Notes under the pieces: model-generated
What the model was told of the DNA's origin: nothing
The model's database searches: none
What the model saw: only the letters and a program-made list of their open reading frames with translations
NCBI GenBank assembly: GCA_963667255.1
Contig: OY762940.1
Coordinates: 512,001-576,000 of the forward strand
From: Candidatus Cloacimonadota bacterium
Lineage (GTDB): Bacteria > Cloacimonadota > Cloacimonadia > G963667145
Direction: 5' to 3'
Length of the DNA: 64,000 nt
Made by a program: the position numbers and the translations under genes
Part shown: one piece after another, positions 1 through 46,840 of the stretch
Layout of the letters: every line of letters begins with the position of its first letter
Numbering within the stretch: position 1 is the stretch's first letter

Positions 1-2
1 AT

Positions 3-3000
3 TCTACAGGCGTGCAAGGTAAGAAATACATCTATAAAGCCGCTTTGTATAACAATTCTACGGGATACTCTCCATTTGGAGATGCTGTGGATACACTGGG
101 TAAAGAGATTTCCGCTCCAACTATTTTGGATGTTTCCAAAGGAAGGTATGAAGACACTATCAAAATCACATGGAGTATGGTAGCAGGTGCTACTAGGGGA
201 TATATGGTTCTCAGAGACTCTACAGGCAGTGATGGTAGCAACGATAATTCTTATGATACTCTCTATCAGACGGAAGAAAAACCGTTAGTTTCCTCTGAAA
301 CAGACACTATATATAGTGATTACACAGTATATCCTGCCGGTAAGAAAATCTATTACAAGATAGTTTCGAAAGGTGCAGACAAAGTGTCTAGCAGGTCTTC
401 TTCAGATTATGGATTCCTCAAGTATGGAGGAGTGAAAGATTTGAAGGTTATTGGATGGTCAGCAAACCCGAAAACAGACACAATGAAAATTACTTGGTCA
501 ATACCGAGTGCTATAGCATGGGATTCTATCTATGTCTCAAGGCTTATGGATGTTGACTCTGCGAATATCTATGACACATTGGCAGCTCACAGGATACCAC
601 AAGCAGAACTTGCATCTTACCTGACCAGTGCAACGAATGGAGATTATAAAAATTATACTTATGTTTCCACATCTACCGACTTATTGATAGGTCAACTCTA
701 TTTCTATCGCGTTAGAGTGAAATCGTCAGGATTTTTGAGCACACCATCCAACATAGGAATAGGATACTTGAATATGCCCAAGGTCACAGGTGTAACAGCA
801 ACAAAAGCTATAGGTGATAGCATAGTCATCAGTTGGACAAAGATATCCAGAGCAAAGAACGATTCTGTCGATTTCTACAGAGTCCATAGGTATGATGCTA
901 TTGCCAACGAGACGAAAACCAAGGAAGTAAGTGGAGGAAAGAGTCAGCTTACAGATTATGCGATAAGTGAAAAATCTCCTTATTCTTCTACGGAAAAGGG
1001 TAAAAACTATTCATACTTTGTAGTTGGAGTTAAGAATATTTCACAAGATACTGTAGTCGGGTCCGTCAGTAGGAAATTTGTAACAACGCTAACGGGAGCA
1101 AACTCTGATACAGCTGTAGGATATTCTAATCCGGATACTGCCACCATAGTGAGTGTTAGCAAAGGGACTGTTGCAGACTCCATAACGATAAAATACTTGT
1201 CTCCAAATTATGTGGATAAGGTAGAACTTTATCGCAGAGGCTCCGGTGAGATTAGCTGGGGGAGCAGTGCTTATAGCACATTAGTTGCAGGTAAGGTTGT
1301 GGAAGAAGGCGAAAAGAACGACAGGAGTATTGAATATGGTAGGATTTATTATTATAAGATAGTTTCCACAAAGGGAGATTATTCTAATACCAGCCTGATA
1401 GATAGTGGATGGAGTTTATTGAAGAGCCCTGATAGCATTAAGATTCTTTACAACGGAGTATATTCTGACAAAATAAGACTCCAAGTGTTCTCTAGCAATA
1501 GTGATGCGTATGTAGATTCTTTGGTTATTATCAAATATGCAGCCACTTCCGGACAAAGAGACACAGTGAAGATTGCGAAAACAAGTATGAATAGTAATTC
1601 ATATGTGGTAGTGGACTCACACAATATTAATCAAGGAGTATTCTATCAATACCGTGTAGCCTTTAGCAACAGCCTGGGTGTTTCTGCTTATACCAAAGCT
1701 GCAAGTAGCAAAGCTTTTGCCAAGATGTCCGCTCCGACTTGGGTTAGCATTAGTCGCAATGAGTATGTAGACTCTATCAAACTTGTATGGAATAAGATTA
1801 ATAGTGCGTATAAGGGGTATAGAGTATATAGAGATAGTGTTCTCGGCTCGAACGGTGCAACGATTACAAATTATGCGAAAATCTTTGCAAATTCTGAGGT
1901 TGCCAATTGTAGTGGGGATACAGCTTATGCTGACAATTATACATATTCCCCGGGGCAAAGCATTTACTATACCATTCAAGCAGTAGGCTATGACACCGTA
2001 TCGGAAAGATCTGAGAGCAACTATGGAACATGTAAATATGAAGGGGTGAAAGATTTGCAATTTATCGGACCGAAATTAGATAGCATATATTTCAAATGGA
2101 CAGTTGCTACAACGGTGGCAGGACCGACTTTTACCTTCTACAAATACGATTCCATAGGAAGAACAGATAGCATTACGAATACATACAAGACAAATATTTC
2201 CTCATATGGAAGTAATGGAAATTATCATATCTCAGAGACACCTGCGAGCAGTAGCTTGTTAATAGGTAATTTGTATTTCTATCGTTGTGTAGTCACATCG
2301 AGTGGTGCTGTGAGCAATCCGAGCAATGTAGCTTTTGGATATCTTAGTATGCCAAAAATTTCGGGATTGGATGCTTCTGAGGGCGGTGAATATTTGACAC
2401 AAGGAGTATTCACGAATTACAAAGATAGCATCAAAATTACCTGGAAGAGAGTTTCTCATGTTGTTAACGATTCCGTAAGCTATTATATTATTACCAGATA
2501 TACTGATACTTCGAAAATTGCTCGCCAATATAAATTGGGTAATGGAAAAGATACATCCTTTACCGATATAGTGGGGACATCGTTCTTCGATGAACAAACA
2601 GAAAAAGGGCAGACATATCGTTATACTGTTCAAGCCGCATACACGATTAGTGAGGATACTACGAAAGAGTCTGGATATTCTCCTTTTATAACTGATCTTT
2701 TGTCTCCAGCTGGAGATACCGTTGTAGGATATACATATCCTGATAGTGTCAAGATGGTCAGTGCTTCCCAAGGGACATATGTAGACAGCATAAAAATCTC
2801 TTATACCAGTGGATTGTATGCTGATTCTATAGTGCTACAAAGAATGGGCTCAAACAACCTTTGGAGTAGAGTAGGACTTTTGAATACTATGGTTAGCAGG
2901 AATACAGCTGCTTCCTTTATGGATAAATCCGATGCTTTGGTCGCTGGTAAAACTTATAGCTATAGAGCTAAAGTTCACTTGAAAAATTTGGTTAGGATTA

Positions 3001-6000
3001 GTGATACAATCGTAGGTTATTCCAAAATAGGACCTCCGAAAAATGTGAGATTTGTCAGGAAGAGTCAATATGCGTATACAGAAGGCAAAGAAGACACCCT
3101 CGGAATAAATGTGATGTGGAGTCCCGAGAGTGACGGAGACGGGTATGTTGTCTATTTTGATACTGCCAGCACTGTGAGAGCCAATGGCTATGTCGATTCC
3201 TTGAAGTTAGATGGAACTTACGATACTACTTGTTTCTGGCAACCAAGAGAGTTCAGGAATTCACACGATTCCATTTTGAAATACTATTTTGCTGTGAAAA
3301 CATACATGAAACAAAATGACGGCACGAGGAAATATTCTGATTTCTCAGATCAGGCATCGGGAGCTGTGGTTAGTCAATCTGTAATGGGATTGGAAGCAGT
3401 ATACAATTCCACAGTAGGGATAAAGAAAATAAGTGTTGCTTGGGATAGTTTGCCGCTAAGATATAAAACAAGCGAAGTACAAAGGTATTGTATATATCAA
3501 GCCAAAAATTCCAAACTCGAGATTAATTTTAAACTGGTAGCTTCTCAAGAAACACAAGATGCCCGTAGCATAAATATAGATACAAGCAAAACACCGGTAG
3601 GTAGTATTTATTTTTACAAAGTAAGAGTTCAATATAACAATGCTAAAGACTCTTCAGTTTATTCACCTATGACCAGTGGAGTTTATCCGCCTTTAGGAAT
3701 CTTAAATTTGGAGGCTAGCAAAGATAGCTCTAGCCAATACTTGTGGTTTAATGTGATACCAGGGATAACCAGTTACAAAATCTATAGGGCAAGCGATACT
3801 ATACCTATAGAGCAAAATCCTGTTGCCACTTTGGATTCTAGCAGTGCAATCGCCTTGGCTACTAATGGAAGAGCAAAATGGACAGACAATTCCGTTCAAA
3901 AAGGCAAAATCTATTATTACGCAGTGGTGATAAGCAAAAATATTAATGTAGATGGAGATTCCAGCTATGCATTGAACACCAAAGAAGGATTTGATGTGAG
4001 CAGTGCTGTCTATGGATATGTCAATTGTGATTTCAAAACTATTGATTTTGATTTCTGTAAGGATGGAATATCTATTTTTTGGCCTAATAATACGCAAAAC
4101 TTCCCCGTAGGAGTGAGTCCGGAAGCTTATAATTTGAAGAGGAAAGGGGCGAATGAAACTTCTTACGGACAAAAAGAGGTAACAAATTACATAGTGAAGA
4201 CGAGAATAGGCTCTACAATGGATTCCTTGTATATGGTTCAGGATAGCGGAGCTAAGTTCTTCACAGCGTTGCTCTCGGGTAGCAAATACGACTATCAACT
4301 GATAGCGACGAAAAAAAGTAAGATTCCGGGCAATGTCATGACCCTAAAATCCCCTATAATGAGGATGAGTTACGACTACAATTGGAAGTATGACTCTACA
4401 TCTACCAATGCTAATTATAAGGGAACACAAGGTTCATATGATGACAGAGTAGAGTTGAGATTTAACAAGTTTAAACCTTTCAGACCAGTGGGAGACTATG
4501 ACAGCACAGGGATTACTCCGGACACTGCAAGCTATTACAAAATCACTAGATATAAGGGAGGTGAGGCTATATATAATGGTATATTGGACACTCTCTATGT
4601 TTGTGATTTTGCTCCAGAAGTAGACGGAACTACTGGAGACACAATATATGTCTTAACGGATAAAAAGATAGGAAGTAGATTTGGCACCAACTTGTCAGAA
4701 GGAGTTTCTTACTACTATGCAGTGCAAGCGGTTTTGGATTATTCCGGAGAATCAGTATTCCGTTCCGGCATTGTGGATGGAATAGCTTCGAAATGTTTCT
4801 TAAAATTGAAATCCGTGACTTTGAAAAGTGTTAGCTCGTATGTAGTGGATAGTATTATCGTGGGAGCTAAAGTTATTTGGGACCCGGGTGACCAAAAAGG
4901 TGACAAGTATATAATCGGTAGAGATACATCCAGTAACTTCTCTTCCGGTTCGGAAATGGTGGTTCAGAATACGGCTATATGTCAAGATACATTGCCAAAC
5001 GGCGAGATTGTGAAGGGCGATACGATGTTTATCGATTACAATATAGCTAAGAATAATTCTGAGTCGAAAGAGAGTCCTTTTGGTATTCTTAGGATGGGGA
5101 TGACATATTTCTATAGAGTTGCCAAAGAGATGAATGGCAGTGTTTGTAGTGACTGGAGTGCACCTATCAGCTATACATATGGCAAGGATGCCGCAGGCAA
5201 TTATATAATTTCCTCTTGGGTTGATTTCAACGATTTGGCAGAACAATATAATAGCGGGCTTATCACCGGAAATATTAGCGTTATTTTGAATAACAATATT
5301 TCGTTTACCAGCACTGACAGTTTGATACCTCTTGGTAATGCTACGCATCCATTCACAGGGAAGTTCAATGGTAAAGGGAACACTATATCCATAGAGCATA
5401 TGAAGGATAATGTTGATAATGTAGGTGTATTTGGTATGGTCAATGGGGCAACTATTAGGAATATAAAAGTCATCAACAAAGCAATTGTAAGCCCGGCGAA
5501 AGGTGGAGCTAAATATGTTGGTGGTCTCATAGGGCAGATGGACGGGATAACCAATGTTGACAGTATCAATATCCAAGTGCATGGTTCTCTCACTGCCAGT
5601 ATAGGAGTGGGTGGATTGATAGGTGGAGGAGACGGTTCTCTCAATGCTTATTACGATACTGTCGTTGCTACAGCAGATTTGGTTGGAGGTGTTTACGCTG
5701 GAGGTTTGGTTGGTAAAGCTATCAATCCTACGGAAATAGGCTATTGTGATGTGACGGCGACAAACATTACTGGTAGTGGTGGAACAGAAACCTTTGTATA
5801 TGCTGGAGGAATGGTAGGGCAATTCAACGGGAAAATGGTTTCTTCTAAAGTCAGTGGTGCTACTTCCGTAAGTGCTGTTGCCAGTGGCAAGACCTGTTAT
5901 GCCGGTGGTTTGGTAGGATATGAAGTTGTAATCGGTAGCCGATATAATAAGTCAACCGTGGGAACGATTACCAGTGGTGTAGCTGCAGGGAGTAGCAGTA

Positions 6001-13049: not shown

Positions 13050-13087
13050 ACAGAAAAAGTAAGATTCTGCATTAAACTTATAAAATT

Positions 13088-13119
13088 GCGGCTCAAGTGA
13101 AAATTTGAGTCGCTTTTTT
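13088..13119 (+). terminator. Rho-independent terminator of the first giant gene
   Basis: GCGGCTCAA-gtgaaaat-TTGAGTCGC stem (one G-U pair) followed by T6, ~40 nt after the stop codon. Confidence 0.8.
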
Positions 13120-13208
13120 ATCTTGTGGAAAATATACCGAAAGAAGTCATATGTTGCTAATCAAGCAATTGTTTATTTTTTGTGTGGGAGTTCCCAATCC
13201 TCTCCCGA

Positions 13209-13614
13209 CTGGATACCCGCATTTCATCCACATCCCCGCATTTTCCTCTCATCCTCGCACCTCACCCACATCCCCGCGAAAGCGGGAATCCACAGGGCAG
13301 GGTTGGTCAGGGACATACAGATGGAGAGTGGACTGGGACATTGTTCTCGCTCCCAAGCTCCAGTTTGTGCTTCTTGCTGTTCTTTGTTTTCTTGCTTGTT
13401 CTCTCCCCTCATACTCACGGAAGTGGGTATCCATTCTCCTTTTCGTTACTCGCTCTCAATCTCCAGCCAAACACAGTTTCATTATGCTTGATAGACTTAG
13501 GAACGAGATTGTTTTTCCCATTATTAACAGAGGCTCAAGCAACTGCACAATAGGGGTTGGATGGAGACATCAGCACTTGCCTCCTTTCTCGTTCCCGCGG
13601 AAGCGGAAATCCAG
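13209..13614. repeat. Cluster of REP-like short palindromes
   Basis: CATCCCCGCGAAAGCGGGAATCCA (13269-13292), CATACTCACGGAAGTGGGTATCCA (13410-13433), CGTTCCCGCGGAAGCGGAAATCCAG (13590-13614), an inverted half copy at 13209-13220, and a second-family element TTGTTCTCGCTCCCAAGCTCCAGTTTG (13341-13367). Confidence 0.75.
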
Positions 13615-13803
13615 TTAGGTTGGGGAGGGAAAAACCCACAAAATCGTAAATACCCCCATCAATATAAAAATCAAATAGATAAAAAAATATGTAAAAAAAT
13701 AGCGATTTTTACAAAAATTTGTATCTTATTGAAACATCAAGAGTAATAAATTTTCAAAATTGTAACAAAATAATTTTTTTCAGTATGATAACTTTAGGCA
13801 AAT

Positions 13804-13956
13804 AGTTTATAACTCCCTAAATAGTGTTATCTTCCTGGTGTATAGTCGTTTATAACTCGTGGATAAACTGTGAAAAAAATCTTTTGCTTTTTGCGTATCT
13901 TATTGATGTTTATAGTGTTGTTGGATTTGCTCAAAAAAGGACAAAATTTATTGACA
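13804..13956. promoter_or_regulatory. Cluster of DnaA-box-like 9-mers next to an AT-rich tract
   Basis: Reverse-strand 9-mers compared with TTWTNCACA: 13869-13877 TTTTTCACA (0 mismatches), 13858-13866 TTATCCACG (1), 13847-13855 TTATAAACG (2), 13837-13845 CTATACACC (2), 13804-13812 TTATAAACT (2), 13907-13915 CTATAAACA (2). Forward strand: TTATTGACA 13948-13956 (1), which also contains a perfect -35 TTGACA. Confidence 0.45.
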
Positions 13957-14070
13957 AACTCCGTTACTGTTAACAATTTACTATTAATGGGCGTGTAGTA
14001 TGTACGCATCAGAAATTGGAAAAAAATATAGGTGCAAAATCAATTGGTTGTAGTAGCCCGAGAGGGAATT

Positions 14071-14075
14071 AGGAG
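14071..14075 (+). promoter_or_regulatory. Shine-Dalgarno site of the 10,918-aa gene
   Basis: AGGAG 8 nt upstream of the GTG at 14084. Confidence 0.7.
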
Positions 14076-14083
14076 AATGTATA

Positions 14084-41000: not shown

Positions 41001-44000
41001 TGGTTACTATCAATGGAGGGACTTTTGTAGGTGGTCTTGTCGGAGAGGTGGTAGAGAACGATAATGCTACCGGAATTAGCGAATGCTATGTTTATGGCAT
41101 CAAAACTTCCGGCGATTTGGGCGAAGTTGGGCTTTTGGTCGGTAAATTGACCAAGGGATACATTTCTTCTTCATACGCTATTTTAAATAAAATCGATAGA
41201 ACCGGAACAGGCAATAATGCTTTATTTGTAGGGAAGATGGCAGACGGTAAGGTTTTGAACAGTTATGCTATTCACAACGGAGTGAAAGTCTCTGGGGCTT
41301 CTGCTTATTCCGATATTACCAAGAGATTTGGGACTTATACTGCCGGAGATACCAGTGGTGCGATAACAGCCGAGAACAGAATATTAATGTCTCAGGAGAT
41401 TACGGGTAGTGTAAATTACGAACTTCGCAACCTTTATTCATATCCTGTTTTGGTGAACAATGTCCGAGAGATAGACACTTCAGTCCTGAGTAATAGTCTT
41501 AGGATGACAAGAGATAATAACGGGAAATATGTAGTGACCAAGCCAATCCAGTTGGATGCAATCGGAGATGTCCGGTTGGTTGGGCAAGATTACAACAAAG
41601 TCAATTCAACTTATTTCCCTGCAGGGTTGCGGTTGGTAGATAGTTTCATTTTGGGCAACAACCTTGATTTCACCGGATACATAGGTTATTCTCCTATCGG
41701 TTATGCAAATTATAACAAAGCATTTACGGGAAGTCTTTTCGGTGACGGGAAAACCATTAAAGGATTGGATGTCTCTTACAGTAACCTTGGAGTAATCAGC
41801 ACAGTTTCTTATAGAGGTCTAGTTGGACATTTTGCCGGTGGAGTCATCGAAAAATTGCGTATTAGCAAAGCTGTATCGGTTGCTACTGGAGGAGACTATT
41901 GTGCTGTAGTTTGCGGCAAATTGGAAAGCGGAGTAATAGACCAAGTGCAGGTTGATTCTGCTAACATCAACATAGGTAGTGGTAAGAATATTTCCCTTGT
42001 CTGCGGAGAGATAACCGGAGGCACTATCCAAAATGTCAATACGATTCGTAACCATATCTTAGGATTGCGTGCAGTTGGTTCACTCATCGGCAAGATGTCT
42101 GGTGGCACTATATCCAAGTCTATCTCTACAGCCGATAGCGTTGTTTCTGAAGTGGGCAATGTAGGAGGCATAGTAGCTGAGCAAACAGGTGGTAAAGTTA
42201 CTAAAATTTATTCTGCTGCTCGAATTTTGGGCGGGACGAATATTTACAAAGTTTCTAGTCTTGGTGGTGGTAGTGTTGATTCTGCATACTCTTTGGGAGA
42301 GACTAATCTGATAAAAGACAATGACACATCTTGGGCTATAGGTCTTGGCATTACTACATACAATGGTAAGAACCTTTTCTTGAATGTTACCAAAGCATCA
42401 GATTTGATTACCAATCTCAATTTGGGTAGTTCTGAATGGACTACAGCAACTGCTGTTAGGACTGTTCCAGCTTTGAGTATTTTCAATAGTAGCGTAACTA
42501 CTATAAATGAAGGCGAGATTTTGTCAGCTTTGGGAGTTCCAGAAAAAACTATGGAAATTCCTACACCTACAGCTTTGTCTTTCGTTTCTTCTTATTCTAC
42601 TCTGAGTTCGGTAGACTCCTTTGTTGTCACCAAAAATTTGGTTTTCACCAGCTCTGATGACTTCTATGAGGGCGAAGGGAACCTTGAACCTATTGCTTCG
42701 CTGAATGGCAAAGTATTCAGTGGAAAAGGTCATACTATCAAGAATCTCAAAATTGTAACCAATGGGACTAAGAGTGGTTTGATTTCGGAGCTAACTGGTG
42801 GTGCCATCATTGAGAATCTTGGTTTGATAAATTGCGAAGTGACAGCCAATAGTGCGGGTGCGACAGTGGGAATGTTGGTGGGTAATGTCTCAACTGGTAT
42901 AGTGCGAGATATCTATATGGCAGATTGTCGTGTAATAGCTACAGGTGCGGGAAGTTCTGTCGGTGGGGTTATTGGTAAGAGCAATGTCTCTGGCGATGAC
43001 TGTGACAGGATAATCGCATTGAATACCTCTCTGAGAGGCAATACTACCAGCTCTTATGTGGGTGGAATAGTTGGCTCTGCTACGGGTAAATTTAATTATA
43101 TGTTTGCTTTCAACGATACTCTGATAGGTAAAACTATGGGGAGAATCTCCGGTAGTGGCGGAACAATAGCAGATGCTTATGCTTGGGCTCTGGATACTGT
43201 TGGTAGAGGTAGCACCATAGGTTTGGCTACAATACATGGCAAAACTACTGATTTCCCTTCAATTTTGAATAAAGATATTTATAACAATTTTGTTTCACAA
43301 CCTGCTTGGACTTGGACGGAGGATAAAGATAATTGGCAATGTGCACCACTTTTAGCATATATGGACTCTACAGATGCTAGCCCCGAAGTTCTTCGATTCT
43401 TTGGGGGATATGGCAGCAAAGATATGCCATTCCAAATCAAAACTTTGCCACAATTGAACTTGGTTAGAGCTTTTGCACAAAGTGGTAAATATTTCAAGAT
43501 GAGAGGCAATATCAATTGTGATAACATAAACTTTGATGGTGATGACTCTAACGGTAACTGGAAGCCAATTGGCGGTAAGGATGGATATTTCTTGGGGCAT
43601 TTTAACGGTAACGGATATAGTGTTTATAACATGAAGATTAAAAATGTTTCTCCGGCAGGTTTGTTTGCAAGTTTAGGGACAACCGGTAAAACAGATGTAG
43701 ATGTAAAATATCTCAGTATCTATGATGCCGAGATTACGCATACTGGGACTCTTGTAGCGGGTAATCTCAGTGCGTATAACTACGGAATCGTAAACAATGT
43801 CTTGGGTAAAGATGGTAAAATCTCATCTTCTGATGGAACTTATATTGGCGGTATTTTAGGACAAAATATAGGGAAAATCTCCAGTTGTGCATCAGCAGCC
43901 AACAAACTAACCGGTAAAACCGTTGGTGGAGTGGTAGGACATAATAAAGGGAATCTTTTGCTTTGTGGCTCTGTAAACGATTCGATTACTGCCAGCACTG

Positions 44001-46840
44001 GTTATGTTGGAAGGGTAGTTGGTAAGAACGAGAATGTCATTTCTTCAAACTATGCCTATAGGGGTACTATCATCAATGGGGCTGTAATTACCGCCGCACT
44101 AACAGGTGAAAGCACTATTCACGGTAAGTCTGTTTCTATTTTGTCATTTAGTTCCAGTTTCTATGACGGGAAATTGGCTATGGATATGATTAGCACATTT
44201 ACTTGGCCTGCACCTTCAGTGCCTAACGATGTTTTTGTCCCAGCAGGCAAATTTGTACCTATTAGTATTGACTCAGGATACATTGATTGGGGTATCCCAA
44301 ATCCACGAACTTTTGCTGGTGGAGACGGTTCATACTCTAATCCTTACAGTATCAAGACGGTGATAGATTTGAACAATATGCGATATGGTCCAGATATGTA
44401 TTTCCGCTTGGATACGAACCTCGTGGATGCTTCTGCTTTCACTTCGCCTATAGGTACGGCTGATATCCCGTTCGAAGGTTGCTTCTACGGCAATAATCAT
44501 TACATTTCTAAACTCAAAATAACAGTTGGCAGCACCGGTGTAAGCGGTATTTTTGGAATATTAAAAGCCACGGAAAGCGGTAGATTTATCCAAAACTTCG
44601 CCATTATGAATTCCACAATTAACGGCGACAAGAATTGTGTGGGAGCTTTTGCCGGAGTGGATGCCAGCCCCTCAGGTAGACCCTATACATTCAAGAATCT
44701 TCTTTCTTACAACAATAGGATTACCACTACGGGCGACTCTGTGGGTGGCATAGTGGGTAGTGCTCCTTATGCGACCATGACCAATTGTTTGGTAGTGAAC
44801 GGATATTTGGAGGCAAAAAATCACTTGGGTGGTCTGTCCTCTAAGGTGAAAGATTTGGTTAATTGCGGTGTGATAGTAGATACCATGAAAATAACTAATG
44901 CCAACGGGACTATCAACCGATTGGGAAATGTAACTGAAGGTTCGACTGTTGGCGTAGGTTGGTATTTTGGCAAAGTGTTAAAAGCTACTACAGCATTGTC
45001 GCCTGCTGATAGTCCAAATAATAATAACACTGCAACAGGCAACAACGCTACTGCTGGGAATTTTGTAGATTCCACTTATTGGAAGGACAGAGGGTTTACC
45101 CTTGCTAATGGATGGTTGCCTGCTCCAACGGGTAAATTCCAAGTAGCACCAACTCTGAAGAGCATGAACTATGACAGTATAGTGGTGGGCGGACTGTATC
45201 CTACCAGTGGAGACGGAACGATTGCCAGTCCATATAAGATTACCGATACGCTGGGATTGAATATGTTGCATTTCTTCGTCAGTGGAGGACCTCTTGCAGG
45301 GAAGTATGTTGAGGTTGAGATGCCTACTTGTTCTGCTGGCAATAATGTGATAGATTTGGGCAACTCCAGTAGCAATTGGGAACTCGACTTGAACGGAACT
45401 GAAGATGGTAACTGGAGACCGATAGCCGATTTCAGCGGAAACTTGAATTTCAAAAATGGTGGTGTTGACCATTTGAAAATTCAACAAAGCTTTAACAGCA
45501 ATCAAGGATTTTTCGCTTCTGTTACCAGTGGTTATGTGAAAGGTATGGGAATTTACAATTCGAGATTGTCCGGTTGCACCGGAAATGTAGGATGCTTGAT
45601 AGGTGAGCTTAGCGGTGGCTCTGTAGAGGCTGTTGTCGGTAGGCAAAATACCATCGTCAACGGTGCTACTGTGGGTGGATTGGTAGGTAAAATTTCTGGT
45701 GGCTCTATCAAACAAGGAATATTTGTTTGGAGTAGTCTCAACTCAGGAACGATTGTTGGTGGAGCACTTGGTAGCTTTGTAAGCGGTGATATTTCCCGCA
45801 TAGCTGCCATGGGTAATAAGATATCCTCCGAAAACTCTGTTTTTGTTAATACGATATTGGGTTCTGGAGCGAAAAATATAAATACCGACACGCTTATATG
45901 TGACAGCACACTAACGATTATCGGTTCGGGCAATGGGGCTTTCCCGAGTGCTGAAGACGGGAAATTGTATACCATGGTTAACCACATAGGCGACAATAGC
46001 TTGTGGACGAGCAATGGCTTTGACTCTATTACCTATTTCAGAAATTTGAATGAAACCAGAATTATCTTCACTCTAAAAAATGTTCCTCTGGCTGTAGATG
46101 ACGGTATTATGCCTACCTTGAGAGGAGATGGGACTTACGCTGTTCCATACCAAGTCTTTAATCCGGCTTCCTTGAAACAGGTAGGTTACGAGAAATATGT
46201 CCAAGGACCATACTATTTTGTTCAGACTGCCAATATTGATATGAGCGATGTTCCGGACTTCTGGCCTATAGGTTTGAAAGATAATAACAATATTTATAAC
46301 AAAACTTGTGACGGTTTTAAAGGCGTTTATAATGGTCGCGGATACAGAATCTCCGGATTGCATGTTGCTGACACTACCAAGGATTATGCAGGATTATTTG
46401 CCAAATCTGTTGGTTTCACCGATACTATTAAAAATGTTGTTTTGGATAGTGCCAGTATCGTGGGAACTAAATGGGTCGGTGCTCTTGTTGGCTATAACGA
46501 TAGTGCTGTTATACAAGATTGTAGAGTGTTCAAATCTACTGTTAGACAATCTATTGCAAGCATTGTAGCTGGAGGAGTGGGCGGTATTGCAGGATACTCC
46601 AGCAAGACAGTAACCAGATGCTTGTCCGTGAACAACTATATGGCGAGTGGTAATAAAACAAATGATACCAAGATGGGCGGTATCGTGGGTCAAGGTGAGA
46701 GTTTGACAGTTAGCTATAACGCTGTTGTGGGAGCACTGTTCATCAATGAGAAGAGTAGCTTCGTAGGTAGGATATTGGGAGGTGGTAGTTCTATTATTTA
46801 CACCAAGAACTACAGTTGGGAAGGTGTGATGGTCAGATAG
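14084..46840 (+). CDS. Giant 10,918-aa predicted lipoprotein/adhesin: FN3-like repeat stalk + GLUG-type C-terminal repeats
   Basis: Uninterrupted 32.7-kb ORF with RBS. Signal peptide MSNTKGRNYGRYLKIFIGLLLFSLLS-C27 (basic N-region, hydrophobic core, LLSC lipobox). Dozens of ~100-aa modules of pattern P..V.AS.G.Y.D.I.I.W...Y.IYR...Y.D...G..Y.Y.V.A extend to ~38970. Gly-rich repeats follow, with GDG(T/S)...PY.I, PIG...F.G.F.G.G..I and YVGGLVG motifs. Confidence 0.92.
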   Translation: MSNTKGRNYGRYLKIFIGLLLFSLLSCNDMIVNNDEIPVPTNVQASSTYTDRIRVTWTCSDATNFIIYRAESSSTTATNYTKLAEVSGNSYDDKESSLVPGKIYYYKVSSYTSTVSQKSDLTGRGSIKVATLESLSATTDQEYKIVLSWTLPSTLKSSLIEGYVTIYYSSNPSTVMADLSDSISLSNLAGSYNLTNVTIGQTYYIKTKVSVKGTGESDLNLKHSDVSSVVTGKTALTSPKNVIASKGTYSGGIRITWDKVVGATAYLVLRGEVNSSQLTYGTTVGTFYSGVTTYTDRNYVDTTITMGQSYRYAVKTIVTENNNTVTKALNSGINDKDTAGVYLNLGYANYSKLTNQGISTDSIGKVVVSYKAATTSFDSVFVQLYRRNYSSSATLSPLGSPVAISSAVFTMTDISAVPGQKYYYSAKIYRLSGTNKMGESAYADEVVGYSRLESPQNLTATDGSSSANVIASWNKVKGAITYYAYIGTDSTSMSCMGTTQDTFYAFTRAFYETGKIYYFKVRAYNNVYSDFSNIDTGWIRIAAPSSLRVSERLQTTLGLEWASVRNAISYVITRKNNTSNSAYVKVDTISSTSTSYTDTGLVSGASYTYKLYTISNRYLTASSSYQMSEASDTLTTRTLLVAPTLDSVSRDLTDKIIVYWTSNSASSLTGLKYRIYRKNDRGGYDNIGESSTTTFEVPIDSIVLGKVYTFGVSAVYDVESELSLTKTGYSKLDAANSLSATQGLLADTVRLTWHTALKSGAEQFKIVRTKSGENDYLQVGSLTDLTTATVTSTYRGYTYNDVSNLEGGQNYDYKVESYRSDYTLQSGVSKIYSNVATGRIKILPPEIYKVDCGVSSGKITIIFNKLASASSYRCYYSKDGSFSDSTYVSIATGAVTTYAENKLKYEMAISTLGLKDGQLCYFKMAAVVSNEVSALSDMKPGFSLPVKPVICSQGTKGTQDYIHFAWNKVSNPDNIRYEILRTRNSDYSTTIIMTTDSFYKDTSVVPGFKYFYKCRAVDQTALNACNTAYSSAFDSMLVKSLYSDTTSGYVKVGKVKDLSASNNKQDSVELTWTSLAKGVSYDVVRRPVNSTTWSTIISSLDTGWCIDSKTYNNVQGYSYYYKIKSYTNDYPNIYTLSDSVQGHMAPSPPQNVVASKGEYADTIKVSWDTLPMVSSYSVLRIDGNGTLMPISPNVTSSGSRVYFYDINLTKGLGYLYLVRANLDYSMGQTVYSDTSIASLKTSATGYTKLPKVGSITATQGTYRDSIRISWSKVGVATSYSLFRYYQGTLKNEYTVTDTVYLNKRSADLNDGQIYSYVVFAKKGTIESVSSSDTAKGYLQLCGPKNVEATQGLKDTIVISWDTLTATTIDSYYIYLSTNLNVALGGVKSPAKRYAYPVPSADKGATIGFVVKGKSSSFGLSATSDVASGYCLVDTLTNFKAVGADTASANPKVVLSWTSPASADSIRIQVKTGATWDALAVLPKDTTSFTDTGRIVGRSIQYRAQGIRTVSGVERNSGFVYTNISLHIPTIAFDTITKGDYLSYVYLTWPCLPSKDEANFQIFVYETEEKYNSGTVFDTLTVVESGKSSYAFKHSANTAKNGFVKGTKYFYRIRTNTITDGTWSALTPMNPTPSVYYGWSKTPAPILDSVTTNLVGSIKIYWRYGSGASSGQVRTVGFGITKIADVSGTYLERNTEIFSGQYYTISVRAINPAIRDTSDWSNSLIGLAQVGPPSVFSASDGTKNDTVQLSWGISGTTPNYGAEKYVIERGLDTSNFNVLQTVEDNSWNIGEQARTLTYNDVLTNSEIGKMYYYRIYAKGGVGNTSAPSKIDSGWAKIPAPEITGYTGYNGSLPLETDSIRVTWSDPCSLATASTVYNIVVTMNGNTTNHIRNWNSKSFSLNIAQADRYQGINVKIYSARNTFGNSLETASLLTYTILPVVAKGDIIKSLTATDKGVSLSYKGTNAWVDSIIFLRKVSGSTVSTQVAKVANPGSSITVTYGDSSGLILSTVYGYSFKLYSKYAGYSVESDTVSVKTKVIPPESFSATKGTSTSNVTMSWTSVASGTRKISYNIYADTVYQDFKASVAAGNKMISPAVASSPVSFTAGTLLNSWLTLERGRKYYFTATTNETSIYAGVNSISVPSNIDSGYISLAKPVLDSVSKGAYSDSIIVRWRACNAYKHNTYVKYKLYWSCDGGAQSTKIISSSDYTYDGTYIRYALPKTEGSITNLLAKKVYTFKVRGVMTASASTFEDSSEISISGLTGWLALARPTSFKANYSGYSPDKIQLRWNNPDNLLVRIYMSNNKSTLWDNFLYSAAKGATTYDVPIESDTNRGVYKYFGARFYDQTFGLSNIADTGCQDSGLAQIDTIKITSVSRGDYLDSILVYWDSLPNVNQYQVRVDDISGNLVQSYSWSSYSVFRETFKGSNLTKGQKYYFKVKARNSAIPIPAVEGSFQSKGVYGFTQLPKVTGVTATDGIHSDRIRIQWTALSGAQEYVVYRSEDTISVGSPIATVTTNSHDDSASTLVFAKDYYYRILGVNSWTRDISASKKNYSAFDTGWIKLPIVKNISASKGTLEGKILVSWDQLSRVDGYYIDTCGYGLSTYGTLDSITSASTSRVYYYESNGLKLGRCYYFKVRAYTGNRSNSLSEVTADSGYMSLGKVQNVRASQGTYADSIRVLFNKVTGYTQANQYELQRYSVSKTNTATVGQYASFAIVADTVAVVDTSFNPEREGFIYKYRVRIAIPSQLLWSEWSDWGLEGWSSLPKLAIKVYDEQDSLKVDTIKVHWDTSSFAGRSATKIELQYGADTVSFSKSVILNKQEQLDKGYLMLDAENYVTIKQGQVFYFRAKIYRTEGTSEISSAFSAIDSGWYQLKKVTMSTMGLGQYADSIYVSWTPQSSLPSLVLSAMTYEIFRNGVRLDSVIGGKTSYYDTTGIDRGKSFTYAIRASHNKFKKSSVSDSAKGYATILTPMLDTVRVSGDDLKVEWRYSTGVDIDSFYVYRLESRDASLPEPTHSAAYSSAVSSYSWTNTACEKGKDYFYCVRAYKRGLSLSDTSQIKSNYIKLDVPVIDTVSRGTSTSQIVIKWKDDTYAKQLSIVRDTLSNFSTAKILDTVNFTVKTYTDANNLQDGKIYYYKINSIRGRFTSDTSKFVAGYTSYKVPAFDGIVNNEDSIQVKWKENGSSADSVLLVIGNDVQVTSPLDSMQTGDKETKNLITKFNSPTWFVRGKEYYIRIKGISHYNTVKREGNSAEKFAVCSDYANAKICYSSLQVPQISVTRNLLDTVKVSWNKMASDVVSVVRVEWKQGAFGVAGDSIYRELNNDGVDTVLEIKVDSSEYKLLAATKYKFRVRFFRGTISSAYSNVDTGWSKLPAPVSLSVSRATYDDSLRFTWNNYLNGTDKNKDSTYEYVLEYEKNSSYALFKRISARESFYDVVYNANSIPLGVETKFRIRGVYRAGEKIDSVTTNLPTATGWTRLIPPIDTAADSSTVSKNIVGKIKIKWTNKLTDATQKTAYNNMGVVYQVERRKSTESFIESGYQTVSSYLVDSFIDSSNLWPQYTYYYRVRYFSPHYYNLLGSTSKSISPWVEIKDSGYLKLATPTVEVGVVGTYYTDSVLLRVKRVYGSDSLYLYRKSADETGYTLWDTVIFPSTSTLIYGAKSYYTDARKIRRGQAYSYKAVALAGIRKSDTSAACSTFTLLGKVSNVVATDATSEDSVVVTWDTVAFADFYDIRVENENGATLFGTVRLNKQDTIIAVKKKSLGGLLDYGVIYKFGVIGKSKNCVYNGDTLGTEAVYDKGYLRFTKPTITALSKDSVGKIKIGVSYPNSGFTFKVYRSPDSAYFKNTTNQYDKYEKIEAILTDSGNGGYQCVDYTSVTNGTNGVHYAYFIQAVSGSIASAISDSTKSDTATDINKRFGYSKIAAYPGELSATKGISTDSLVVSWPVPEIASKLDSIKYQWFEYKDDVAKDSGIVKGTKVVRDTTTNARGVRYKYRIKLKAYDKNGNNYTTSDISLDSKTGWISLDTPTIVLTRDALKNNVISISNSTLPFGLFRTINGVSMSEIRVSAGKSYTDSVLYANYYVGKHVSYTVKTYNSDFTLQSPFSLAVDTYYYIYPPAYFAASQGTYENKISLNWAWKNQEKAHVDSFILYRYNNSVLSKRVALTESNLTINLAGDSLLYYDIDEIKQGVSYRYGIKTKRVNTGFSNRESDTTWNIKNGYATFSAPQNLTASKTAKQVTIKWDSLRNQGSVGGYILFYTADKSKALSLWDTAVVTDTVLTQSGTKAVPEGTIRWYKVAAFSSIVDTGTVSTSDVYGYALMNAPSGLNCCEAVSVDSIRVTWTKKADIYKTYYLQWALDTASNSNGTFVKPLGEKGDYDYSTSSFVLDSFTIPITADSLRGRRIYVKLWAQNSYGRSEPALDSGYTRLAKLTSLSVSKGLRKDSLRISFAKPSDANTASFNLIVDTLGSNFSSPERKIESIVTMDTILKVNHSGYYYKVGVSANSNLTGAGSDTIWDSGYSKIPAPTGITAEALKTGYNKITWNKGYIGANQEISYSVYRKDNSNAVATVVNRYKDASASATSSLIDSSCMPGYHYEYYLRAYATSRPFNSSVSIESDTSAHASVDTKIGIIANFIQDTNAFSQTSASLYWSQRGDLVNYEIWYSRFADTTTAKKIDVTIANSNFYTSISDSLANFPGMLWHFWIKAKTASGLTGTWTPDNDTGLLVYTLPSISTIDSVSEGVSEDTIYVRWSKSKYSKFRLAYRKSSATTWDTLSARADTIAKISKTTHSLIRGEQYYFKVNSLIDSGTVSPMGSTHGAYGRYLESGYSESKVGYLKYDTIANFRVYNQADSIKDDRINLYWDKTEGSNVSYLLYRSTTSDVSTASLMSMSTLTDVGYYEDARANNGSAPLPGKAYYYWITAKKNTLPNSEGEKKKLRGYANNAFNGVDSAWTKLIAPSNLKVSGVFYSSTMKNDKSLSYTDSIVIRWNKMSSVDSFRLQGSIGSTIYLDTFVSDTHVCWKGMVRGKVYSFKVCAFNSLVGKTSPKWTDAVNGFAMLKAPTSVTLKQDTINCGVVVSIDTVHLADKYLLYSHSTGGSFEKLFEVPHAIRSPLDTLDNTLLPGKKVWYCVTAYNGTTGGSDSSAIVDTFCPVLPPNGLSATKGTRSGDVYITWNLDRFTKGVDSFRLYRDSLAGIWTEGDHIATVKTFSGALVEYYDVLGSVSAASDTLFSGKKYKYALKSYANGYSSKFTSNEKVDTGWVALPDVNKVRGTFVKAGTDSIKLYLTVSKLANKNVGYVYRRVKMKRGSFDTTYVTTLLTNDSLVKDGNNLKEGMVYSYEFKAYNSNFIGLAAHGAPSVWSNKTGAQLGSAGMISANWSTLTYGGKKFAAPTIHAVRNFDSLKVDTITFSWQSDSLVTHYNFVRDTTVAFSSPVAFGLTNNSLRSLDSYFYAPAEGLAKTQPYYFKMQKQNQEYEMTAWDSLSSPWSAIDSSWSKLIPPKGVTATTKIVDTIRVNWNKYSWKDTVSYVVVSKNSAGTWVATTVGNFDSLRFRSTYADGEKEIGVYTTHAKFGSSDTSSPLVIGMGKIESPTFADGPTRGRYLDSVVMVMNEAGMNSAKTKFRMYYSTDKTSPAISSINPDDGDYFASDSNRLVFKSGSGLYTSGYGAKVYFRVAWSLGSIYSEKSAVDSGWTKLDTPTNFQSRPLEDPLDTMAIKLIWSNPANVDTVKIYRTRVKDNSFVLRKDVLTSGSNGSFIDIIPEEDRRKTYYYKIMATNKLDSTDSKFTDSVKAFVAIYNITNFSATDGAKRDTIELSWKADLDTNFTIRIYTDRDHNSVVDSIKNLKASAGKSWIPNKTTTFPGYWYYFRVNLEGDENSPTVKFAAVDSGYALIPEISRDSVIITNDTSKIKLGTRIANVDDSAFTQFDATGAFRLNYVSKIYVSKYNAITGVFTIVDTLLTGKKIVKDIDLTYGKINRYSLKFVNQVSTGFERDYYSFTTLRKPATPTWSSSDLSLTQIKLRVFKGNNDATLIDSVVLYRLDSKGNKDTMVYAFSTTMEPNSLIDTLKLTQALFYSYKAAFYNNKTGISRICDSIDSVYVKLQAPVFDSISKGTNRDTIYIRWKTVSAASKGYRLYRNENYPEGSFSLLKSFGIKTDTFYKDSSVYEQCKNIYYRLLAVGEDTTSLLSDCTPDYGSRAFRGVKNLVSKNVPQLSKVQLEFSVPSTISLSNPEPAEKFDKGVQLMRYDTISDTAKTNSIYSPRVTVINNGSGSYSLEDDSLLIGQLYFYRVLVKSTVSASVSELSNIAEGYILPPPITGVSATIGAKIDTIVLSWTRISPATLRRDTVDAQIIYRSNDGFVSNKDSLTIGGKDSIFADCGTKMGNLLKPGHDYSYKIKAVVKINEPDTGGRIFETTLYSAYSNVASGWAQMGALANNQVTVVKTDTSKINRRYPPATIADSVVQINFTNLPTYATYLNIYRKTMGTTQFIFADTVKFSGTSVTYCDTVTGSRNRGDVLLYRIKLGANHEAEKYFDTASYTNLQQAVSITTLSYDTSMVKLMVTLAYNSYANTDSLLMSRYSMSDVLQDSFLTAVGGRMVTVVDTGGTPGTLYKYKAALFNSATGYSPYSSVVDTIGKVILPPRFDTITKGVYEDSISIVWHKNKYASKGYILYRDTSGLTGSVDALYDSIYTITSISDTVYADKKTYPASKHIYYKVVSVGTDTKSSKSAKDYGYLKYKGIKDLVVKGWSNSLFTDSLQINWTMPTALPIDSIFVSRLTDVDSSANLDTLTAHRLANSLIAPRISIVTNGDYTNYKYLNSSASSELLLGQLYFYRIRIKITGITEASTPSNLGIGYLNLPKVSNVYATTGEGDSIVISWTKLPRVKTDKVDSYRVYRSDGQKISVSGDIGEVTDYSFGTSLYGTLLSKGASYKYAVVAEMKIDQDTLPGTSPGKFVKVLLSPISDSALGYTFPDSAHIDTVSKGTVQDFIAIGYRTPKNADTVALYRKLTSDVGWPSTALSGLPGNVSTTAYYNDSAIVTGAMYQYKILVRKGAVDKYTRIDSGYSFLSAPDSILIANNGENSKLIMLKIFSPNVQSYQDSILIHRASLSLSDTDSVSYRVPSPLIGNMYIVNDTHNIHQGVFYKYKVRFKNELGSSPYTAAKNTKAYAKLDVPSLKSVSVREYPDTIKLVWSKVSHASRGYVIWADSTLNTDGTIASAYKIIDSTTSVNDTIYKDTTNYLPEQTIYYKVQSFGPDTTSALSSAERGSLKYKGLDSLNIDINNPKVDTIYFSWALPTTIVNPQFTFYKYDSVTKIDSLTDVYKMSNISAYKVAGVDTLYYAMETPASDVLTIGNLYFYRCVVSIGGLASNASKAKYGFLAMPEVKGFSASAGGARTPEFVIYQDSIVISWKKVSYFKSGESPEYILNKYDTSGAKIGSITIRDTMYVDSVGGRGFGTAIERGQSYKYSVKAKFTISEAIIGGTATHTILSKDSTIVTGYTFPDSAHIISVSKGTITDTIKVEFTTPKYADSIVLYRTNSGNITKRLDTLRINAISTTNYIDSSSDLIASSNYVYQIRVYKNGLINLSNLDTGYIKLAAPDSVWCERSDQYASGYKDTSEIVIKWNYEKNAHGYWVYLAKSSLKTNFAPIDSTQLPSVYDTMLKYQPKDFLNRADSINDYYFVVKSYVRNQDGNIRYSDISMEDSGAVVSQSVVGISAKYDSGKDSIVVKWTGLRANYNRSEVDSFVVYQAANTKQSTGFTRVASTKDTIISIDSNRTSAGNFYYYKVKVYYNNDKRVSVYSPVTSENDVYLPLGKANLRVSRNKKQLTVIFDTIANVTAYKLYRYIDTLPSTYSPVKTWTNTSATSAASGDSVTWIDASVLQGKIYYYGMVVGKTVVVDGETLTCSSNFGFSVAQRKCGYIRSYFSLVDFDFVSGGLKLFWSRGINFADGVIPEYYDLTRGVSPAIGSFVNISDKVTKKVSTSDAKDTIFTIKDSGTGLFTTAKEIGKRYRYLLRARITSKLQDTMYVVSDSMDMLYDYHWANDSATTNSKYSASKGNYRDRILFRFTQFKPCRDTADYDTLGITPDTLSYYVVARYKENALGCYIMEDKDTVHVSDMAVISSYGGLDEYYIDDNGEDSIFTTALADAVQYTYSVQGFIDYGGGTVFSSKVIKDSSICNGHLKMPSLTLTDIGYILVDSVRYGIKIKWDKPSTASCSYIVGRDTVPTFAEQSDNYVPAAMDTILASGNLILNDTMFLDSNTTASPLGKTSLGYTYYYRVKRGVESSSKDTIYTSWSNVVYKTYGMVNNVYNITTASEFNDVATQINSGKLNKSISVELAKDITFAGVDTLVPMGNSAHPFMGEFNGKGHTVHVSVMNLSDTRLGLFGGVSSATITNLKIVYDSAVTTTSKYFGGLVAELVGAATIKGVDVTFKDTITGADYVGGLIGGGSGAATLRNDSVYLSGNITGGLYVGGFAGELVGYSTVDSCQVSASSSSIVSTNAVGGGFVGYFRGTMTNSQMDLAGQVKVRTGASGTQVRLGGLVGEDLGKSSYKNVTIKNRPTVDAGVSTVSQAIVGGLVGYSRAESISDISMGSVKSVRGIASGAVYAGGVVGMFDYASGYMEKFNLQGCDSIVGRSTSGDVCVGLIAGRTEEISSTVSIGSASDTIRVSLASGKYLSASSTSGKLYLGGAVGYSEDLVLKNTKIDSIQFNANGLYGCVGGAVGYESTNGSKYTSVIVGSNVALNSGLSSVKELYAGGLVGVANSSTTSGTKVAAKFDFTNSAFASNKVYLGGVYGHASSSDIDLTGIEKLSLDSFAFKVGNNSVVGGYAGILDVKTFTLDTTTISKIKFSSTSVNTAGDSSSVGGIAGSCVASGVLNINYGGSVNLFVAGGKLSNVGGLFGKMSVPVGATLIDTSAGGITLSAGTSGAGVGSWYGGLVGHTYGGTLKGLRVRATIDSAKIVGGLVGKLSGSAILKTSYADSLVTINGGTFVGGLVGEVVENDNATGISECYVYGIKTSGDLGEVGLLVGKLTKGYISSSYAILNKIDRTGTGNNALFVGKMADGKVLNSYAIHNGVKVSGASAYSDITKRFGTYTAGDTSGAITAENRILMSQEITGSVNYELRNLYSYPVLVNNVREIDTSVLSNSLRMTRDNNGKYVVTKPIQLDAIGDVRLVGQDYNKVNSTYFPAGLRLVDSFILGNNLDFTGYIGYSPIGYANYNKAFTGSLFGDGKTIKGLDVSYSNLGVISTVSYRGLVGHFAGGVIEKLRISKAVSVATGGDYCAVVCGKLESGVIDQVQVDSANINIGSGKNISLVCGEITGGTIQNVNTIRNHILGLRAVGSLIGKMSGGTISKSISTADSVVSEVGNVGGIVAEQTGGKVTKIYSAARILGGTNIYKVSSLGGGSVDSAYSLGETNLIKDNDTSWAIGLGITTYNGKNLFLNVTKASDLITNLNLGSSEWTTATAVRTVPALSIFNSSVTTINEGEILSALGVPEKTMEIPTPTALSFVSSYSTLSSVDSFVVTKNLVFTSSDDFYEGEGNLEPIASLNGKVFSGKGHTIKNLKIVTNGTKSGLISELTGGAIIENLGLINCEVTANSAGATVGMLVGNVSTGIVRDIYMADCRVIATGAGSSVGGVIGKSNVSGDDCDRIIALNTSLRGNTTSSYVGGIVGSATGKFNYMFAFNDTLIGKTMGRISGSGGTIADAYAWALDTVGRGSTIGLATIHGKTTDFPSILNKDIYNNFVSQPAWTWTEDKDNWQCAPLLAYMDSTDASPEVLRFFGGYGSKDMPFQIKTLPQLNLVRAFAQSGKYFKMRGNINCDNINFDGDDSNGNWKPIGGKDGYFLGHFNGNGYSVYNMKIKNVSPAGLFASLGTTGKTDVDVKYLSIYDAEITHTGTLVAGNLSAYNYGIVNNVLGKDGKISSSDGTYIGGILGQNIGKISSCASAANKLTGKTVGGVVGHNKGNLLLCGSVNDSITASTGYVGRVVGKNENVISSNYAYRGTIINGAVITAALTGESTIHGKSVSILSFSSSFYDGKLAMDMISTFTWPAPSVPNDVFVPAGKFVPISIDSGYIDWGIPNPRTFAGGDGSYSNPYSIKTVIDLNNMRYGPDMYFRLDTNLVDASAFTSPIGTADIPFEGCFYGNNHYISKLKITVGSTGVSGIFGILKATESGRFIQNFAIMNSTINGDKNCVGAFAGVDASPSGRPYTFKNLLSYNNRITTTGDSVGGIVGSAPYATMTNCLVVNGYLEAKNHLGGLSSKVKDLVNCGVIVDTMKITNANGTINRLGNVTEGSTVGVGWYFGKVLKATTALSPADSPNNNNTATGNNATAGNFVDSTYWKDRGFTLANGWLPAPTGKFQVAPTLKSMNYDSIVVGGLYPTSGDGTIASPYKITDTLGLNMLHFFVSGGPLAGKYVEVEMPTCSAGNNVIDLGNSSSNWELDLNGTEDGNWRPIADFSGNLNFKNGGVDHLKIQQSFNSNQGFFASVTSGYVKGMGIYNSRLSGCTGNVGCLIGELSGGSVEAVVGRQNTIVNGATVGGLVGKISGGSIKQGIFVWSSLNSGTIVGGALGSFVSGDISRIAAMGNKISSENSVFVNTILGSGAKNINTDTLICDSTLTIIGSGNGAFPSAEDGKLYTMVNHIGDNSLWTSNGFDSITYFRNLNETRIIFTLKNVPLAVDDGIMPTLRGDGTYAVPYQVFNPASLKQVGYEKYVQGPYYFVQTANIDMSDVPDFWPIGLKDNNNIYNKTCDGFKGVYNGRGYRISGLHVADTTKDYAGLFAKSVGFTDTIKNVVLDSASIVGTKWVGALVGYNDSAVIQDCRVFKSTVRQSIASIVAGGVGGIAGYSSKTVTRCLSVNNYMASGNKTNDTKMGGIVGQGESLTVSYNAVVGALFINEKSSFVGRILGGGSSIIYTKNYSWEGVMVR
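32050..36840 (+). repeat. Three ~525-545-aa internal super-repeats (about five FN3-like modules each)
   Basis: G(Q/N)LYFYR recurs at ~32909, ~34544 and ~36116, with matching flanking motifs (AS(K/R)GY, G(V/I/L).. L, D(S/T)IV.SW). The upstream paralog has the same motif at ~696 and ~2271. Confidence 0.8.

Follow-up and report, generated by a model that had tools for sequence, protein, structure and literature searches.

Giant FN3 lipoproteins of a Cloacimonadota bacterium are rich in candidate O-glycosylation sites of the Bacteroidota type

General protein O-glycosylation is known in Bacteroides fragilis, Tannerella forsythia, Porphyromonas gingivalis, Prevotella intermedia and Flavobacterium johnsoniae (PMC12871550). 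In its available text, this 2025 review calls the system unique to Bacteroidota, gives mannose as the first sugar and describes the initiating transferase as undiscovered. The most glycosylated T. forsythia protein, the S-layer component TfsB, a cargo of type IX secretion (T9SS), carries 20 sites, 19 of which were detected according to the accessible part of that study (PMC8550257). Here we describe giant genes in a 64,000-nucleotide stretch of a Candidatus Cloacimonadota genome (contig OY762940.1, positions 512,001 to 576,000; hereafter ‘the window’), whose products bear the motif D-[ST]-[AILVMT] in very large numbers. In our reading, to which we assign a probability of about 0.78, these proteins are lipoproteins in which some 78 folded fibronectin-III (FN3) modules are joined to a GLUG-like tip and whose D-(S/T)-hydrophobic sites accept a general O-glycosylation of the Bacteroidota type that is likely phylum-wide.

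The host, a member of the Cloacimonadota and not of the Bacteroidota, has a complete-looking genome of 1,587,896 bases (G000; completeness 98.9%), 6.3% of which is occupied by three giant genes, A, B and C. The preliminary description treated the open reading frame (ORF) at 12..13049 as a protein of 4,345 residues; it is instead the C-terminal part of gene A, which starts 20 kb before the window and in its complete form (G000:C1:491876-525049) encodes 11,057 residues (1.2 MDa). The window holds the last 4,348 codons of A (3..13049, plus strand), with 71 of its 201 core sequons, and the lipobox Cys lies outside it. Gene B (14084..46840, plus strand) encodes 10,918 residues (1.19 MDa), and gene C, with 11,247 residues, is found 100 kb upstream on the opposite strand (G000:C1:377030-410773, minus strand; loci L014/L015).

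Core sites were counted against 300 composition-matched shuffles per protein. A contains 201 sites where 53.5 ± 6.8 are expected (shuffle maximum 73), B 238 where 54.2 ± 7.2 are expected (maximum 73) and C 274 where 61.9 ± 7.4 are expected (maximum 85), a 3.8-4.4-fold excess, and shuffling in 100-residue blocks gave the same expectation; with an extended motif the counts become 264-368 per giant. The enrichment first proposed from a hand count therefore persists, and that count was exact: in the first 590 residues of ORF 12..13049, where shuffling predicts 3.3 core sequons, 21 of the 40 Asp residues are followed by Ser or Thr, and 19 of these 21 continue with A, I, L, V, M or T. The quoted mid-stalk motifs and the six paralogue pairs with swapped Ser and Thr are likewise present, and of the 197 A sites that could be aligned over the whole length, B retains 117, 33 of them with such a swap. 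Asp is followed by Ser or Thr at 1,033 of 2,064 positions in the giants, as against 9.7% in 783 predicted cytoplasmic proteins. The corresponding Glu motif, E-[ST]-hydrophobic, is under-represented (41 versus 71 expected), and N-x-S/T counts are near expectation, giving no N-glycosylation signal. Since all 20 codon pairs are used for D-[ST], a DNA-level cause of the motif was rejected. Cytoplasmic AlaS (55678..58266, plus strand), described earlier as free of such a bias, has no sequon in 59 Asp residues, but with 2.3 expected it is a weak control; better is the genome-wide class of predicted cytoplasmic proteins, with 512 sequons against 519 expected (0.99). Within the giants, sites are sparsest close to the lipid anchor and in the tip (0.8-1.4 per 100 residues) and densest in the distal stalk (2.3-3.1); an FN3 module has about 2.5 of them, which fall at strand starts and turns. 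In five congeners, whose copies of one host gene are 71-89% identical, each of the 20 large ORFs of the giant family shows a 2.7-4.5-fold excess.

The third position of the motif is constrained as well. Asp is enriched before [ST]-x in the giants when x is I (6.1), L (4.7), V (4.3), C (3.4), M (3.2), F (2.9), T (2.6), G (2.4), H (2.0, on 4 counts), A (2.0) or S (1.9), and depleted (0.1-0.8) when x is N, Y, K, E, W, Q, P, R or D; the order is nearly the same in the congeners. At measured Bacteroidota glycosites, as given in the review's available text, L, I, V, T, A and S make up about 90% of third residues, M, F, C and G about 2% each, and N, E, Q, P and D less than 1% (PMC12871550); the residues enriched in the giants include all ten that are common there. 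Conservation was followed in 11 orthologue pairs of 47-55% identity over the first 8,400 residues (G001 was excluded as too close; the pairs share one reference and are not independent). The complete motif is kept in 70% of 2,276 comparisons, whereas x-[ST]-hydrophobic triplets of other kinds stay complete in 14-18%. Ser/Thr is retained in 91% of cases when Asp is retained and in 29% when Asp is lost, with 43-50% and 39-41% for the controls. Asp and Ser/Thr are thus conserved as a pair, a real and selected signal in the giants; together with the shuffle excess and the third-position spectrum, this bears out the proposal that they carry a Bacteroidota-type sequon under selection.

Such statistics reveal selection on Asp plus a hydroxyl, not its chemistry, and the sites might instead have been selected to accept a different extracytoplasmic modification, such as phosphate or phosphoglycerol, or as ligands of divalent cations, an alternative that would also fit a host genome in which no Bacteroides-like metG-wzx locus was found. 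We regard it as improbable, given that the third-position spectrum matches that of measured Bacteroidota glycosites, that protein classes glycosylated in Bacteroidota bear the signal here (below) and that a metal site would not be expected to require a hydrophobic third residue across many folds.

All three giants begin with a lipoprotein signal, which in B (14084..14164, plus strand) ends at Cys27 with acidic residues next; the lipobox Cys is kept in the congener orthologues compared, and most orthologues of the giants have acidic residues behind the lipid Cys. A profile iterated from the giants’ own repeats counted 78 FN3 modules in A, 77 in B and 79 in C. The last stalk modules of A lie at 3..5186 and the stalk of B at 14198..38974 (both plus strand), the latter with 1.4 sites per 100 residues in modules 1-10 and 2.7 beyond. 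Evidence for the fold comes from one module of B bearing six sequons (35570..35863, plus strand), which AlphaFold2, given an alignment of 143 sibling modules, modelled as a seven-stranded FN3 fold at a predicted local distance difference test score (pLDDT) of 94.8; a single-sequence model of a 434-residue piece (pLDDT 30.5) was rejected in its favour. The sites of this model lie at strand starts, at strand ends and in one loop, its best Foldseek matches are FN3 domains (template modelling score about 0.7), and matches in the Atlas were FN3 clusters only. Pro content of the giants is about 2.6%.

The last 2,600-3,000 residues of the giants are glycine-rich repeats. Those of B (38975..46840, plus strand; 29 sequons versus 9.6 expected) are GLUG-like, tblastn with the last 518 residues giving weak matches to 12 plasmid records, 5 of them annotated as GLUG-motif proteins. 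The tip of A (5187..13049, plus strand; 22 sequons versus 10.4) matched no Pfam family above cut-off and is termed GLUG-like by its resemblance to that of B. At the C terminus of C there are 12 repeats of the Listeria-Bacteroides type together with a GH19 domain (chitinase class I), which no congener giant has and which is likely a recent tip swap. A separate locus of the host (L012; G000:C1:173129-182658, minus strand) codes for exported GLUG-repeat proteins with 41 sequons against 9.7 expected, in which ORFs of 326 and 949 residues overlap and may be one split gene.

One alternative is that D-S/T-hydrophobic is a strand-capping motif of the FN3/GLUG repeat family, spread by repeat duplication and left unmodified. 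The modules do share ancestry, and 111 of the 548 sites in 219 modules cluster at one position, the start of the B strand, with the others spread over many positions. A plasmid search for control FN3 repeats returned one weak match and was replaced by a search with 26 modules, whose 120 listed matches were reduced to 60 proteins at 60% identity and aligned to the giants’ profile. The motif ratio was 1.25 in all 60 and 0.93 in the 56 (436 modules) that remained after four high ones had been set aside on inspection; in these 56, homologous FN3 repeats carry no surplus of the motif. Neither of the two sequence-based refuting tests put forward earlier, shuffling and FN3 repeats from elsewhere, thus went against the sequon. 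In the giants, 111 of 116 [ST]-hydrophobic pairs at the B-strand position come after Asp, a residue that appears there just 6 times in the control set of 436 modules, in which T, S, N and G prevail at this place; leaving this position out, the giants still have 2.0 sites per module as compared with 0.38 in the controls. The strand-favouring residues Tyr and Trp are depleted after D-S/T, and Phe is enriched. In addition, folds without relation to FN3, namely GLUG repeats, PBP1A tails and Big_5, show the same excess. Among the seven of the 12 plasmid matches to the B tip that were retrieved, six non-FCB (Fibrobacterota-Chlorobiota-Bacteroidota) proteins have 18 sequons against 38.8 expected, and one Bacteroidota T9SS cargo has 2 against 3.9. 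As far as sequences can tell, strand capping appears largely refuted, and we hold it to be very improbable.

The four proteins set aside show a 4.5-fold ratio and are best matched by one lipoprotein family, the two named members of which are Chitinispirillaceae, an FCB lineage. Chitinispirillaceae-type FN3 lipoproteins of 1,150-1,310 residues (P0006, P0007, P0008, P0062 and P0137-P0146) have a 4-5-fold sequon excess, a pattern that suggests the same glycosylation system in Fibrobacterota.

Whether the signal is general in the phylum was examined in other envelope proteins. For the penicillin-binding protein (PBP) PBP1A and a Big_5 lipoprotein, the best 30 loci each were taken from 101 genomes, and in the 24 genomes outside the genus we counted 249 sequons against 50.5 expected and 110 against 35.7, respectively, a 3-5-fold excess; the Glu controls fell short of expectation. 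In PBP1A, many of the sites belong to C-terminal tails, whose length varies among genomes. Both classes have glycosylated counterparts: the three most glycosylated P. intermedia proteins include a Big_5 protein, and a PBP is presented as a glycosylation carrier in P. gingivalis. Tails of PBP1A in other Cloacimonadota families (L209-L232) have up to 16 D-S/T-hydrophobic sites, mostly D-S-L. In the host itself, locus L199 (G000:C1:784353-792372) encodes exported proteins without Pfam families (701, 518 and 780 residues) that hold 13, 8 and 9 sequons where 2-4 are expected, and a beta-barrel-like gene comes after them.

Several observations weigh against our reading or narrow it. No glycan has been observed, so the sites are candidate acceptors. 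The proposed contrast between exported and cytoplasmic proteins held for the genome’s cytoplasmic proteins and was slight for the exported ones, since the remaining predicted exported proteins reach just 1.15-fold (201 versus 175, P 0.03) under a crude hydrophobicity classifier that gives 1.32 for exported proteins in a 280-kb Saccharicrinis sample, our Bacteroidota benchmark. For three further members of the Cloacimonadota, random samples of 120-140 kb yielded ratios of 1.01, 0.87 and 0.54; a sample from a Balneolaceae genome stood at 0.67. PBP1A and the Big_5 lipoprotein had been chosen because they are enriched in the host. Twenty FN3-containing loci in other families contributed 22 large proteins whose pooled ratio is 0.87, with two clearly enriched and several well below 1, so that the presence of the TMEM260-like gene discussed below does not by itself predict enrichment; these low counts fit sequon avoidance in surface cargo and also show the signal to be less than universal. 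In P. gingivalis, abundant surface lipoproteins are biased against glycosylation, and the glycosylated proteins are mostly periplasmic or inner-membrane. Among the FN3 controls, three of the 56 proteins reach 3-4-fold, on counts of 7-12, and most are without a taxon name (the five named among the 60 are Desulfosporosinus, Bacteroidales, Planctomycetota, Ruminococcaceae and Clostridiaceae). In the host, metG (422-424 kb) has no adjacent PF01943 gene, and the Bacteroides metG-wzx locus is therefore not reproduced. The giants also lack the exact lipoprotein export signal, K-(D/E)2 or Q-A-(D/E)2, a consensus that is that of Bacteroidota in the accessible part of its source (PMC5080379). Taken together, the evidence for a general system in the phylum is mixed and on balance favours it. 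Four large surface proteins of other families are depleted (L187, 1 versus 10.6; L184, 8 versus 15.6; L185, 8 versus 16.3; L183, 20 versus 31.1), which may reflect avoidance of an active system.

Because the signal is common to ordinary envelope proteins across the phylum, and because no conserved glycosylation genes lie beside the giants, the dedicated ‘glyco-filament system’ envisaged in the preliminary description was given up. A glycosylation locus dedicated to the giants was considered and rejected, as only one of six genomes, G004, has polysaccharide genes there: a cluster of about 26 biosynthesis genes between A and B (L116-L120, G004:C1:661000-726000) that is absent at this place in the other five. 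A search with PF18962 gave no match anywhere, controls included, and is uninformative; a local profile built from five C-terminal domains found one protein in the host.

A candidate for the missing initiating enzyme is encoded elsewhere in the host genome. A single PF11028 (TMEM260-like) gene lies at 966,325-968,667, outside the window and not beside the giants; its product matches the family at E 2.6e-40, and its sole match among solved structures is human TMEM260 (PDB 9rql). Its Asp36 aligns with the human catalytic Asp52, whose mutation, according to the available text of two reports, inactivates TMEM260, a mannose transferase (PMC10214176; bioRxiv 10.64898/2026.09.21.753134). PF11028 was found in 99 of the 101 Cloacimonadota genomes searched, mostly as a single copy, and in one of 14 control genomes, that of Bacteroides thetaiotaomicron, and relatives of the family belong, where named, nearly all to FCB lineages. 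As far as the same sources go, human TMEM260 (CAZy GT117) mannosylates the B strand of beta-sandwiches, and the commonest site of the giants opens a B strand; the human enzyme differs in being domain-specific and, as a further point against our reading, in recognising a different and longer Pro/Gly motif without Asp. The assignment of the bacterial homologue, whose activity is a candidate one, therefore rests on distribution, fold and donor logic. A count of Asp conservation at 79 loci around TMEM260-like genes (61 of 61 matched, 18 unmatched) was circular, as the search pattern contained the motif, and was left unused; sequon numbers at these loci were too low within single lineages to be informative. 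We consider the TMEM260-like protein the most likely initiating enzyme, at slightly better than even odds.

The first sugar could instead be added by another GT-C enzyme, for example a PMT_2-like protein, with the TMEM260-like protein serving another role. The host has three PMT_2-like (PF13231) matches, one of them over cut-off, and the human motif and the distance of the TMEM260-like gene from the giants would both be explained. PF13231, however, also matches in nine of the 14 control genomes, Escherichia coli and Bacillus subtilis included, whereas PF11028 is confined there to B. thetaiotaomicron and is near-universal in the phylum; moreover, mannose, the first sugar in Bacteroidota, is the sugar that TMEM260 transfers. 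We judge this alternative possible, if on the doubtful side. The remaining glycosylation-related matches comprise 14 family 2 glycosyltransferases (GT2), two Wzx flippases at 18-19 kb and 51 kb, inside polysaccharide gene clusters, and one ManC-like gene, which, like a short GT2 resembling polyprenyl-phosphate sugar synthases, falls below curated NCBIfam cut-offs. STT3 (PF02516) was not found in the 98.9% complete genome, with control matches in four archaea; with N-x-S/T near expectation as well, STT3-dependent N-glycosylation was rejected.

We propose that each giant crosses the inner membrane by means of its lipoprotein signal, and that a periplasmic GT-C enzyme would attach a lipid-linked sugar to the Ser or Thr after Asp at two to three sites per module. 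FN3 modules measure about 3.5-4 nm each, and the chain of 78 would fold into a stalk of some 300 nm, keeping a tip of adhesive or lytic type at a distance from the cell, that of C possibly chitin- or wall-attacking; the glycans may solubilise, stiffen and shield the stalk. The giants could alternatively be glycosylated but form a lateral scaffold in the periplasm, where most P. gingivalis glycoproteins reside, its abundant surface lipoproteins avoiding the motif; the missing export signal, with no export route identified, points the same way. Against this, a 300-nm rod far exceeds the width of the periplasm, the tips are of domain types found in secreted adhesins, with Listeria-Bacteroides repeats and GH19 at the end of C, most orthologues carry acidic residues after the lipid Cys, and T. 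forsythia heavily glycosylates its surface S-layer. We therefore regard a periplasmic scaffold as unlikely, and the surface as the likely location.

The earlier estimate of up to a few hundred O-glycans per protein stands as a number of candidate sites (201-274 core, 264-368 extended), with the glycans themselves predicted. The ‘mucin-like fibre’ does not survive: the stalk is a series of about 78 FN3 beta-sandwiches, folded and with some 2.5 sites apiece, and resembles a glycosylated S-layer or adhesin more than a mucin, so that a folded FN3 stalk with periodic glycans is the better wording. Mucins and serine-rich repeat adhesins consist of low-complexity stretches that lack a sequon and are glycosylated stepwise; the giants would resemble them as long extracellular chains, likely heavily O-glycosylated, and differ in their folded modules and strict motif.

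The Bacteroidota system is closer, sharing the three-residue motif, the same permitted and avoided third residues, the failure of Glu to substitute for Asp, PBP and Big_5 among the carriers, and apparently an excess only in non-cytoplasmic proteins, slight among exported proteins at large; the differences are the metG-wzx locus, not found in the host, and the number of sites, about 10 times the largest per-protein number compared. TfsB is a surface protein, as the giants are predicted to be, and has dense sites that are nearly fully occupied; the giants differ as 11,000-residue lipoproteins with 201-274 core sites on tandem FN3 modules. Described giant FN3/Ig-like surface proteins have a long repeat stalk, an adhesion-type or lytic tip and several paralogues per genome; in the available text of that study, ‘Cloacimon’ and ‘lipoprotein’ are not mentioned and the glycosylation passages concern other matters (bioRxiv 10.1101/2023.11.21.568195). 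Among top-ranked literature matches, subscription papers excluded, there was no link of TMEM260/DUF2723 to Bacteroidota glycosylation and no description of these giants; top-ranked matches likewise held no report of the motif in Cloacimonadota, although figure 2A or the supplements of the review may hold Cloacimonadota values. We thus see a known kind of system in a phylum for which no report was found; its substrates are extreme, and the missing enzyme has a testable candidate.

Genomes of the genus measure 1.5-1.6 Mb and those of the other 35 relatives searched 1.4-4.4 Mb. A, B and C were found in all five congeners, B being split into two overlapping frames in the middle of the gene in G001 (L095-L096) and at a contig end in G002 (L100-L102), through either a real frameshift or an assembly error. 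G004 has three additional FN3 lipoprotein paralogues of 3,400-3,700 residues between A and B. Contigs of run X1, which may be the source sample, cover window positions 1-20000 gap-free and with a single substitution. At 13405-13446, in the interval separating A from B, several other X1 contigs match and diverge at a stretch of about 30 bases, with palindromic repeats nearby; it is likely a dispersed intergenic repeat. Rfam gave no matches.

The motif, with its full third-position grammar, is now seen in Cloacimonadota and in a Chitinispirillaceae protein family, set against a system claimed for Bacteroidota only. Tentatively, and at somewhat less than even odds, D-S/T O-glycosylation could be ancestral to the FCB lineages and started by the bacterial TMEM260 homologue, this genus having made three megadalton surface stalks with 200-370 glycans each; if so, the giants would be by far the most glycosylated sequon-dependent bacterial proteins among those compared. 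The single conserved candidate enzyme can be tested in laboratory Bacteroidota. The six-site module offers a ready reporter and the PBP1A tails a compact one. For the organism itself, the giants suggest how a 1.6-Mb genome may keep 300-nm protein stalks soluble and protected.

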